A stretch of DNA of 64,000 nucleotides from a virus (lineage: Duplodnaviria > Heunggongvirae > Uroviricota > Caudoviricetes). The stretch's first letter is position 1, and the number at the start of each line of letters is the position of its first letter. This document shows, in pieces, positions 5,915 to 38,635 of the stretch. A program made the position numbers and the translations under genes. The notes below the pieces were generated by a model, which worked only from the letters and a program-made list of their open reading frames with translations, searched no databases and was not told where the DNA came from. The stretch is from IMG/VR virus record IMGVR_UViG_638275541_000001. One strand, 5' to 3'.

Positions 5915-6022
5915 ATGAGTAATAACTCCATCGCAAAAAAGTTTAGAGCGTCATACCTAAACAGACGTAAAAACAAAGTTTGTGAAAAACTGTATGGTGT
6001 TCTCGTAGGTAAGCAGGATTAG
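5915..6022 (+). CDS. small basic ORF (35 aa) inside the tRNA cluster
   Basis: ATG preceded by GAGGAGAG; MSNNSIAKKFRASYLNRRKNKVCEKLYGVLVGKQD; stop overlaps start of tRNA-Arg; below the ORF-track length cutoff. Confidence 0.3.
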   Translation: MSNNSIAKKFRASYLNRRKNKVCEKLYGVLVGKQD

Positions 6023-35092: not shown

Positions 35093-35476
35093 TCAAATAC
35101 CTGTGCAGCTTCTGTTTTCTAAGAAATACTCAACACCATACATAGCTTTTTGCATCAAATCTTCTTTAAACTGGATACGATGGTTGAGCATAGCCTGTAC
35201 ATCAATATCATCATGGTGCTTCTCTTTAATATTTGCAGATTGCAGGAAATACTCTGCAAGAACGCGATACTGATAGTCAGTTACCTTATCAGTCATCTCT
35301 GTTAAAGACTCTTCAGAGATTGGTTTCAGTAGCTCACCATTAGCTAGAGCAACACCTTTAACAATCTGGCAAGTGTCTTCTGGAACACCTGATAAGTCCA
35401 CATTTGGAAGTTCTGTTGCATTGACTGGTAAATTCATTGCCATAACCATTGCAGCAGCTAATAAAATCTTTTTCAT
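35093..35476 (-). CDS. secreted/periplasmic protein with signal peptide
   Basis: 127 aa; N-terminus MKKILLAAAMVMAMNLPVNA; RBS GAGG; own promoter-like element upstream. Confidence 0.5.
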   Translation of the reverse strand: MKKILLAAAMVMAMNLPVNATELPNVDLSGVPEDTCQIVKGVALANGELLKPISEESLTEMTDKVTDYQYRVLAEYFLQSANIKEKHHDDIDVQAMLNHRIQFKEDLMQKAMYGVEYFLENRSCTGI

Positions 35477-35758: not shown

Positions 35759-36859
35759 TTATTCGTAATCTCGAATAACTAGCCCAACAGGGAACTGTAA
35801 AGACCCCTTACGAGTCATCTTCTGGAACTGAACCGTCAAAGGTTTCCCGATAAACTCTTCAGGATGCTCAGCAAGATACTGTTTCTTCTCATGAGTAGTC
35901 TTCCATGAGACATCTACAAAGACGTTAGGAAGAGTCTCTACAACGAACTTACCATGACCACGTTTATCGGTCTTGACACCAGTCACTTTAAACTCTTCAG
36001 TGTGCATCTTCTTGTGCTTAATCAAGAAGTATGAACGGTGACAACACTCATAGAAGGAGTCTTCAGAGATTGAACGGTACATTGCACCTTCAAACTTAGC
36101 TTCAACCCACTTATCATGGGCTTCGTCAAACTCTTCCCAAGAATTTACACGGATAGTCTGTACAGGAACCACTCTACAGGTATCACCAAGCCCAACAATG
36201 GGTGAGTTATCAATAACTTCACGACGCTCAGGCCAAGATTTTGAATTGTCACAGATATCATACCAGTAGAATTTAAGAAGGTGACGGTCTGGATTGTCAG
36301 CATTCTTAATCATAGATACAATATCTTCTAAGTCCCAACCATGAGCATAAATCTCTCCATCAAAGTCTTCAACTTGTGGATGTAATTTAAGCAACAAAAG
36401 TAAATCTGGAATTAGTTCTGCTGGAACGTTGTAAACAGTATTCTCACGAGAATAAGCTGTGAAACCGACTGAATCAGCATCTCTTGAAATTCTACAACGG
36501 ACACCATCAAGTTTTGGTTGAGCATCAGCAGGGAACTTCAGATACTTTGCATGGCTAACCTTTGCAGCATCATGAGCAAGCTGTACACCTACCTTCTCAG
36601 TATTCTGTGCAGACTCTTTTGTGTAAGCGTAACCTTTACGGTCTACTTGTTTCTTGTACTTAGCAGAAACTTCAAAGAGAGCTTGCTGTTCAGCGTTACG
36701 CTCATTCTTTTTACCGATGTTCTTAGGCTCTGCTGTGTACTCTTCAAACATCATCTTGCCATTTTCTTTACCGTAGGTTGTGATAACTTTGTCACCTACA
36801 GCAACGCATGACCAGACGTTGAAGGAACCATCTTTATTTTGTTTGTATAGGATTGTCAT
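35759..36859 (-). CDS. ATP-dependent DNA ligase
   Basis: adenylation motif I KLDGVRC; start moved to second Met with RBS AGAGGT. Confidence 0.7.
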   Translation of the reverse strand: MTILYKQNKDGSFNVWSCVAVGDKVITTYGKENGKMMFEEYTAEPKNIGKKNERNAEQQALFEVSAKYKKQVDRKGYAYTKESAQNTEKVGVQLAHDAAKVSHAKYLKFPADAQPKLDGVRCRISRDADSVGFTAYSRENTVYNVPAELIPDLLLLLKLHPQVEDFDGEIYAHGWDLEDIVSMIKNADNPDRHLLKFYWYDICDNSKSWPERREVIDNSPIVGLGDTCRVVPVQTIRVNSWEEFDEAHDKWVEAKFEGAMYRSISEDSFYECCHRSYFLIKHKKMHTEEFKVTGVKTDKRGHGKFVVETLPNVFVDVSWKTTHEKKQYLAEHPEEFIGKPLTVQFQKMTRKGSLQFPVGLVIRDYE

Positions 36860-37052
36860 TTTTAACCTCTGAGTGATACCAAGTATTGCAAGCATTACAT
36901 GCGTAAAGCTCTAAGTCATTTTTATCTGGTTTATGGAAACAGTTTGACCCACAACGACACCGGAATAGCTTACCATCAACACGAAGAATGAATGTTTCAA
37001 GCTCACCATCTTCTGTAAGAACTGCGTTCTTAAATTTATCTTCTACAGTCAT
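36834..37052 (-). CDS. small zinc-finger protein
   Basis: 72 aa; CRCGSNCFH...CNACNTWYH. Confidence 0.4.
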   Translation of the reverse strand: MTVEDKFKNAVLTEDGELETFILRVDGKLFRCRCGSNCFHKPDKNDLELYACNACNTWYHSEVKNDNPIQTK

Positions 37053-37255: not shown

Positions 37256-37265
37256 CGTGAAAACC

Positions 37266-37523
37266 TCACTCAATAACCGTAGTATGTGATTGACCATTTT
37301 TGCCGTAGCTATAAGATGTTGTTGTTTGAGAGTTTGGACATCTGACAACAACAATATCCCTACTTATAGCGTCACCATTGAGTTTGTAGATTTTGCAGTC
37401 TTGCATCTCTGGAGGGAGGCTATAAGAGGCGTCTTTGTTTTCATAAGATGGGTTACAGCCAGCCAGAAAAATTACTCCAAGTGCAACCATTGCTTTCACA
37501 CAACTCTTAACCTTATTGTTCAC
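37266..37523 (-). CDS. small lipoprotein
   Basis: 85 aa; MNNKVKSCVKAMVALGVIFLAGC with lipobox LAGC. Confidence 0.5.
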   Translation of the reverse strand: MNNKVKSCVKAMVALGVIFLAGCNPSYENKDASYSLPPEMQDCKIYKLNGDAISRDIVVVRCPNSQTTTSYSYGKNGQSHTTVIE

Positions 37524-37655
37524 GATAGTCTACCTCTCTGTATGTTTTTAAATAGTGAGTGATGAGTTCTGGTAATTCACTACGTTTAACGTTTGAACGA
37601 AGAAGTGTCCAGTCAAAACCTTTACCAACCCTTCCCCAGAGACTGTACATTTTCT

Positions 37656-37889
37656 TCATAGCAACTCCAGAATATCAATACGTTCACCTTTGAGTACTCC
37701 AGTACGGTCTCTTGCAATCTTACCATCAACAATAAGAATGTGCGCAGACTTTAAAGAGTCACCATTAAAACCTTTTACGAACTTACTAGGCATCACTACA
37801 ATGGACATCTCCTGAATCAACTCTGGAGTATAGCAATTGTCGTGAAGTTGCTGAATAACGTCTGAAAGTGTCATTTTTGATGTCTCCAA
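37656..37889 (-). CDS. hypothetical protein
   Basis: 77-aa ORF. Confidence 0.35.
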   Translation of the reverse strand: METSKMTLSDVIQQLHDNCYTPELIQEMSIVVMPSKFVKGFNGDSLKSAHILIVDGKIARDRTGVLKGERIDILELL

Positions 37890-38131: not shown

Positions 38132-38635
38132 TCAACTTAGTTTTGCAAACTCTCCGTGGAGTTTAATAGCAGCTTCACAGTAAGCTTTATGGGCTTCTTC
38201 AGGTGTGTCAAATAAACCAAGTGATGTCCTTTTACCTCTGCATGTTATAGCTGCCCTCCACTTATTGCAGTCTTTAAAGTAATGTACACCCTTGTAACCT
38301 GATTTGTTAGTCGTCTGCTTTATTCTATTTTGAGCATTTCCGTATTTATCAGTCTCCCTAAGATTAGAAATGTGATTATTACTTCTGTTACCATCAATGT
38401 GGTCTATCATCTTAGTGGGTTTGTAACCATGTTCAAACCACCAAACGAGGTGATGAATTTTTATTACGACATCTTTGAATTTAAGTACTTTGTAACCGTA
38501 AGCATCAGCACCTCCTGCAATCTGCCCAGCTTTAGCTTGTCTATTCCTGTCATACTTGTTGTAGAAGACCCCTTTGTCGGGGTCGTAAATAAAATTATCC
38601 TTGTAATCTTGAAGTGTTAGTGTACGGCGTACCAT
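38132..38635 (-). CDS. HNH homing endonuclease with AP2-type DNA-binding domain
   Basis: HLVWWFEHG...IDHIDGNRSNNHISNLR then SGYKGVHY...KWRAAI...LGLFDTPEEAHKAY; paralogous to 48209-48709 and 61059-61550. Confidence 0.7.
   Translation of the reverse strand: MVRRTLTLQDYKDNFIYDPDKGVFYNKYDRNRQAKAGQIAGGADAYGYKVLKFKDVVIKIHHLVWWFEHGYKPTKMIDHIDGNRSNNHISNLRETDKYGNAQNRIKQTTNKSGYKGVHYFKDCNKWRAAITCRGKRTSLGLFDTPEEAHKAYCEAAIKLHGEFAKLS

Follow-up and report, generated by a model that had tools for sequence, protein, structure and literature searches.

gp90 of Salmonella phage FO1a, a predicted lipoprotein of the widespread phage family DUF4884, with a tentative role in protecting the infected cell's envelope

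Over a 3-kb stretch around gp90 the sequence matches Salmonella phage FO1a (Felixounavirus felixO1) at 100% identity and about 250 other Felix O1-like phages at 85-95%; the stretch lies within a window of 64 kb, by which we mean the whole stretch of phage DNA that was analysed. The leftward run of genes in FO1a consists of the DNA polymerase gene (gp95), an HNH endonuclease gene, gp93, gp92, gp91, gp90, gp89, gp88 and the DNA ligase gene, all tightly packed, with the dihydrofolate reductase and thymidylate synthase genes farther along. The FO1a record annotates gp90 as "hypothetical"; its start overlaps the end of the upstream gene gp91, stop codon included, by 11 nt. The features of the locus are as follows.

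37513-37659, minus strand: gp91, a basic protein of 48 aa that belongs to PHROG 2381 and lacks a signal peptide; the beginning of gp90 covers the gp91 stop codon.
37533-37537, minus strand: Shine-Dalgarno-like AGAGG, 9 nt upstream of the gp90 GTG, read from the sequence; the Mushroom record also marks a ribosome binding site there.
37266-37523, minus strand: gp90 precursor ORF, 85 aa, GTG start at 37523-37521, stop codon at 37266-37268; DUF4884 / PHROG 902 member.
37458-37523, minus strand: predicted signal peptide, residues 1-22, with n-region MNNKVKSCVK (three Lys), h-region AMVALGVIF and then L-A-G; it varies among relatives, with the lipobox kept.
37455-37466, minus strand: lipobox L20-A21-G22-C23, Cys23 being the predicted lipidated residue 1 of the mature protein, with Asn at +2.
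37269-37457, minus strand: predicted mature domain, 63 aa, a linker of about 10 residues and then a small five-strand beta domain, as indicated by conservation, AlphaFold2 and dN/dS.

The translation from the GTG is MNNKVKSCVKAMVALGVIFLAGC/NPSYENKDASYSLPPEMQDCKIYKLNGDAISRDIVVVRCPNSQTTTSYSYGKNGQSHTTVIE, where the slash marks the predicted cleavage point and the mature part begins NPSYE. The choice of start codon matters here: FO1a GenBank takes an internal ATG, giving 74 aa, whereas the Mushroom record takes the GTG, giving 85 aa. The internal start strips the charged n-region from the signal peptide, and this choice likely hides the lipoprotein from automated predictors. Since the Felixounavirus relatives begin with ATG at MWK or MLK, immediately ahead of the hydrophobic core, a gp90 start at or before Val9 is sensible; the lipobox is retained whichever candidate start is taken.

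A charged n-region, a hydrophobic h-region and a lipobox of the form [LVI][ASTVI][GAS]C mark substrates of signal peptidase II, and gp90 has all three. With a simple lipobox filter, gp90 is the sole passing ORF in the window; shuffled windows yield 0.33 passing ORFs each on average, so that the lipobox pattern by itself is not significant. What argues that the lipoprotein ORF is real is its conservation across the family. In an alignment of 251 family representatives the lipobox Cys is present in 250, every sequence has G, A or S at position -1, and 238 have L, I, M or V at position -3; the Pfam model of the lipid-attachment site, LPAM_1, is matched by 34 of 120 members; and the mature part compared with that of phage Bas63 gives a dN/dS of 0.063 at a dS of 0.77. 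The signal peptides of Felixounavirus relatives differ (MWKAVIVLGVIFLAGC, MLKLLTLVMTILLVGC), and the mature sequence behind them is the same. As judged from these comparisons, gp90 is a genuine lipoprotein ORF under strong purifying selection, and the 250 of 251 lipobox Cys and the low dN/dS uphold an earlier note on this DNA that had described an 85-aa ORF with a lipoprotein signal and the lipobox LAGC.

The residue at +2 of a mature lipoprotein governs its sorting: Asn leads to the outer membrane, and Asp keeps the protein in the inner membrane. The Felixounaviruses have Asn here, and across the family the commonest residues are Asp (63 of 251), Glu (55), Thr (35) and Ser (34); the carriers of Asp include phages of E. 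coli, Yersinia and Pectobacterium and, by name, the enterobacterial phages PBECO4, fHe-Yen9-04 and POP17. By the +2 rule, gp90 is predicted to reside in the outer membrane, and the Asp homologues of the same or related hosts in the inner membrane. Because roughly 25% of the members carry Asp, the site of action would not be uniform across the family.

AlphaFold2, given 120 sequences, models the mature domain as a small five-strand beta domain with a mean pLDDT of 73, and three motifs run through it: Y-x-L-P-x-E/G-L/M-x-D-C-K-[IV]-Y, V-V-R-C-P-N-S-x-T-x-T, and G-K. Conserved residues, with their counts among the 251 representatives, are Cys43 (251), Cys62 (250), Pro37 (247), Pro63 (239) and Lys75 (237), followed by Thr67 (229), Gly74 (227), Asp42 (225) and Arg61 (222). 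The model puts Cys43 and Cys62 at the ends of two paired strands, residues 22-26 and 35-39 in mature numbering, from which we infer that the two Cys probably form a periplasmic disulfide that closes the hairpin.

The protein belongs to a family that is already catalogued. Residues 2-83 align with positions 2-87 of the 118-position profile of PHROG 902 (function unknown) at E = 2.9e-18, and tables precomputed for a collection of 5.8 billion proteins place PF16225, named DUF4884 in the records, on all listed homologues except the truncated P0012 and P0112; among those that bear it is P0001, 96% identical to gp90. A local Pfam-A hmmscan matched PF16225 to neither gp90 nor any of 120 members, so the Pfam membership of gp90 is taken from the precomputed tables; the PF16225 model is probably missing from the local copy. 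Throughout DUF4884 / PHROG 902 the members agree in size, in the lipobox and in the two conserved Cys.

The family is widely spread. By tblastn it occurs in 590 phage records, the carriers being Felixounaviruses, T5-like Vibrio phages of about 114 kb, Acinetobacter Saclayvirus, Vequintavirinae (4MG, POP17, ABPH49) and jumbo phages (fHe-Yen9-04, PBECO4, G17, pEa_SNUABM_12). An HMM search of 1.84 billion representatives returned at least 1,280 clusters (50% identity) at E <= 0.001, 759 of them at E <= 1e-10; the best 150 of these clusters are all 75-154 aa long, and the longer members, searched for domain fusions, have low-complexity or repeat tails only. The T1-like phage Henu8 also encodes an 86-aa "DUF4884 domain-containing protein" (PMC12210894). 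The motif V[VL][RY]CPN[SA][QTN]T[THQ] found no relative in 185,579 species-representative bacterial genomes, and this pattern is narrow, so that absence from bacterial genomes counts as weak evidence. A literature search for functional data on gp90 or DUF4884 found none, DUF4884 appearing in just two papers, as a bare annotation; the main text of the PhageMaP study of Bas63 makes no mention of gene 42, and two further essentiality studies have no Felixounavirus in their scope; and scans with NCBIfam, PADLOC and the local Pfam-A gave no informative family for gp90 or the family members. gp90 is an ordinary, uncharacterised member of a large catalogued family of phage lipoproteins, of which the earlier note was unaware.

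The surroundings of the gene point to the replication phase. No terminator-like site was found on the minus strand from the polymerase to the ligase genes, and Whichard et al. regard genes 96-80 as a single transcription unit; by RT-PCR, ORFs 87-90, 93 and 96 reach their peak at 25 min, a timing that they class as 'middle', in an ORF numbering that may differ from that of FO1a (PMC3185647). The description of this region as an "early-gene block" is accordingly right in that the genes are non-late and form a replication unit, and approximate in that the neighbouring ORFs reach their peak as middle genes. Homologues of gp90 in other phages lie among small early or replication genes in every annotated case. 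The nearby gene gp88 (36834-37052, minus strand, 72 aa), whose four Cys are arranged as in a zinc ribbon, is absent from ESCO56.

A 412-bp block at 37259-37670, exactly gp90 plus gp91, is missing from phages ESCO56 and fBSPA4. Further, gp90 copies at 60% identity or more number about 196 records versus 263 for the genus spanin, a shortfall that apparently concerns mainly Salmonella phages (55 versus 73 records), the name-based gp90 counts including phages outside the genus. Because the block is absent in these two phages and the records are fewer than for the spanin, gp90 is, as far as comparison of genomes goes, an accessory gene and dispensable. About 20 nt remain in ESCO56 and fBSPA4 between the matches that flank the missing block, which behaves as one insertion or deletion. 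ESCO56 also has an extra gp92 paralogue, 40% identical to gp92, and in the metagenomic variant P0006 the first gp91 residues are fused to the lipoprotein.

Comparison of 18 diverse loci by blastp (E <= 1e-4) shows the lipoprotein to be the only gene family that they share widely, and in this sense gp90 is a stand-alone gene. A hydrophobic neighbour stands upstream in only 4-5 of the 18, and such neighbours are mutually dissimilar. In 4MG (4735-4980 of locus L007), ABPH49 (2651-2998 of L011) and fHe-Yen9-04 (2786-2986 of L008) the upstream gene encodes a small protein with 1-2 transmembrane helices; these three proteins are unlike each other, and may be chance neighbours or non-homologous partners.

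The neighbours bear on the proposal, one of the options in the earlier note, that this lipoprotein is an outer-membrane spanin. No hydrophobic segment was found in gp91 (48 aa) or gp89 (68 aa), in agreement with the remark made there that no inner-membrane spanin partner is obvious. The spanins of the genus are encoded elsewhere: Mushroom has an annotated overlapped i-spanin/o-spanin pair beside the polynucleotide kinase and rIIB genes (PMC4392139), and FO1a has its pair at record positions 5406-5916, namely gp6 (115 aa, N-terminal TMD) and gp7 (89 aa, lipobox MSGC). A search of the window for gp6/gp7 found the pair absent, since it lies outside. The Felix-type o-spanin turns up in 263 Felix-like phage records, and the spanin survey of Kongari et al. 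(2018) places Felix01 and FO1a among the overlapped two-component spanins (PMC6139136). With gp7, gp90 shares similarity over just 15 columns at the lipobox. Of the marks of an o-spanin, gp90 thus carries the lipoprotein signal; it has no cognate i-spanin, a protein with an N-terminal TMD and a coiled-coil domain in the periplasm, adjacent, embedded or overlapping, and it is not the spanin of its lineage. We rejected gp90 as the spanin, and with FO1a having its own pair the option of the earlier note is effectively excluded.

In predicted fold, too, gp90 departs from the o-spanins, which are proline-rich and extended, unlike its modelled beta domain. It does resemble lambda Rz1, T4 PseT.3 and Felix O1 gp7 in being a small lipoprotein with periplasmic cysteines, and this likeness, together with the small membrane proteins just upstream in 4MG, ABPH49 and fHe-Yen9-04, is what could be said for gp90 as a lysis protein of some kind, whether as a second o-spanin or as some other lipoprotein that helps to disrupt the outer membrane or to time lysis. 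We consider such a role highly improbable: a complete overlapped pair is already present, Felix O1 and most other loci lack a TMD protein placed beside, within or across the gene, and the membrane-protein neighbours elsewhere have nothing in common. The gene is also transcribed with the replication genes, a long way from the holin and endolysin, and is out of any lysis context; its conserved Cys pair looks intramolecular, and some Felixounaviruses keep their spanins but do without gp90.

The other comparison to be made is with the exclusion lipoproteins Llp of T5 and Cor of T1/phi80. The lipoprotein Llp is small and periplasmic, carries a Cys11-Cys58 disulfide, is encoded beside the receptor-binding protein gene and acts on FhuA (PMC9586334). 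Exclusion by receptor masking of this type was the reading that the earlier note preferred; for gp90 it would mean binding to the periplasmic face of the phage's own receptor and allosteric closure of the phage-binding site. The general anatomy is shared: about 60 mature residues facing the periplasm, one intramolecular Cys pair (conserved in the gp90 family), synthesis before the late genes, and a virulent phage as carrier (PMC9586334); Asn at +2 of gp90, moreover, predicts sorting to the outer membrane, as this reading needs.

The sequences speak against it. A full-length hhalign of the family against Llp reaches a probability of 88%, the signal coming from the signal peptide and lipobox; between mature domains the family profile scores 13.4 against Llp, within the range of 60 shuffled controls (95th percentile 13.9), and profile against profile the probability is 0.3%. 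None of the Llp relatives checked for PF16225 carries it, and kinship with Llp was rejected. Searches of PDB sequences with the family profile, at E up to 10, gave signal-peptide matches to BamD and FlgP only, and fold searches returned no phage lipoprotein, from libraries that may hold no Llp chain. The Cys spacing is 19 residues in gp90 versus 47 in Llp. The sequence comparison was made with Llp.

Location and receptor differ as well. gp90 sits between the DNA polymerase and ligase genes and not beside a receptor-binding protein gene, the tail-fibre genes of Mushroom being more than 7 kb off, past thymidylate synthase; Felix O1 targets the LPS core and not a protein receptor (PMC8594841), whereas Llp and Cor act on FhuA. 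Similarity to Llp, adjacency to a receptor-binding gene and, from the literature, a TonB-dependent transporter as receptor are thus all lacking for gp90. A periplasmic lipoprotein cannot directly mask LPS, the receptor of this phage. The same conserved protein is found in phages with unrelated receptor-binding proteins and receptors, and the quarter or so of members with Asp at +2 argues against an obligate outer-membrane location. Masking in the classical Llp/Cor form is therefore unsupported, and we regard it as improbable.

Putting the sequence features together, we suggest the following course for gp90. The precursor would be exported by Sec, Cys23 would be lipidated, and signal peptidase II would cut before it; given the Asn at +2, gp90 would by default be sent in Salmonella to the outer membrane and sit in its inner leaflet, where the mature part of 63 residues would face the periplasm and fold as a small beta domain stapled by the presumed Cys43-Cys62 disulfide. 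Since the surface of this domain is very conserved yet the family occurs in unrelated virulent phages, which infect Escherichia, Salmonella, Yersinia, Erwinia, Pectobacterium, Vibrio and Acinetobacter, we infer that the domain may bind, on the side of the periplasm, an envelope component that is conserved among Gram-negative bacteria. gp90 would be made in the replication phase, would be dispensable for growth in single infection, and would protect the envelope of the infected cell, through receptor-independent exclusion at the level of entry or through protection from lysis from without.

This protective or exclusion role, independent of receptor masking, is a tentative proposal that we hold at clearly less than even confidence; a broader role in envelope modification or exclusion is our most plausible guess. 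Exclusion is in either case an analogy with Llp, Cor, Imm and Sp and not a result. The functional model that we favour is T4 Imm and Sp (spackle), which resemble the proposed gp90 in giving exclusion or protection from a location in the envelope, early, in a virulent myovirus and without receptor masking. Neither is a lipoprotein, unlike gp90: Imm sits in the inner membrane, and Sp is secreted into the periplasm. No Pfam family of the Imm or Sp kind is among the matches listed for the family members. The plasmid entry-exclusion proteins TrbK and EexN, which block incoming DNA, are small lipoproteins like gp90; the NCBIfam matches of some members to TrbK, EexN and LptM are weak, below the curated cut-offs and confined to the signal peptide and lipobox. 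No structural analogue that would point to the gp90 target emerged, the PDB sequence hits being signal-peptide matches and PADLOC and NCBIfam giving nothing meaningful. It is possible, though doubtful, that DUF4884 represents a new and widespread class of virulent-phage effectors that work in the periplasm on a single conserved envelope machine of Gram-negative bacteria and give receptor-independent protection; that its mechanism, generic superinfection exclusion or envelope stabilisation, is distinct from masking by Llp and Cor and from T4 Imm and Sp is a similarly speculative suggestion.

The same anatomy fits the main rival, a periplasmic effector of host takeover or anti-defence that has nothing to do with superinfection and that binds and inhibits or re-tunes a conserved host envelope enzyme or stress/defence sensor, a reading that we think possible but would not bet on. 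As candidate targets, each offered with as much reserve, we name a peptidoglycan hydrolase, a protease, a factor of LPS or OMP assembly, or an abortive-infection system linked to the envelope; the effect, equally conjectural, would be an envelope that stays intact and productive up to programmed lysis. The occurrence of the family in phages with unrelated receptors, the invariable placement of annotated homologues among accessory genes on the early or replication side, and the accessory nature of gp90, which counter-defence genes usually share, all speak for such an effector. In addition, Bas63 gene 40, taken as the homologue of the neighbouring gp88 from conserved gene order and equal size and not from sequence comparison, is reported to trigger the Hhe defence system (PMC11482910), and the block is therefore suggested to interact with host immunity. 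Against it, the search with PADLOC gave no defence-related match.

Felix O1-like phages are used in Salmonella diagnostics, biocontrol and therapy, and an accessory protein acting on the envelope could cause cross-exclusion within a phage cocktail or alter the surface of the infected cell. Finding the target of DUF4884 would annotate hundreds of phage genomes at once, and might expose a conserved vulnerability in the Gram-negative envelope. For now, gp90 is an ordinary hypothetical gene for which the label "lipoprotein" is correct, and which would not surprise a specialist.

Some other genes were noticed along the way. The leftward unit of gp90 encodes a second exported, probably periplasmic, protein 1.8 kb downstream: gp86 (35093-35476, minus strand, 127 aa, PHROG 4332), with a Sec-type signal peptide, MKKILLAAAMVMAMNLPVNA/TELP, and two Cys. 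In PBECO4, the second gene downstream from that of the DUF4884 protein encodes another, unrelated predicted lipoprotein (gp346, 3620-3895 of locus L009, 91 aa, …FLTAC/NDD). An HNH/AP2 homing endonuclease gene at 38132-38635 on the minus strand directly follows the DNA polymerase gene, and it is at the place of this endonuclease that the polymerase gene of Mushroom is split into two pieces.
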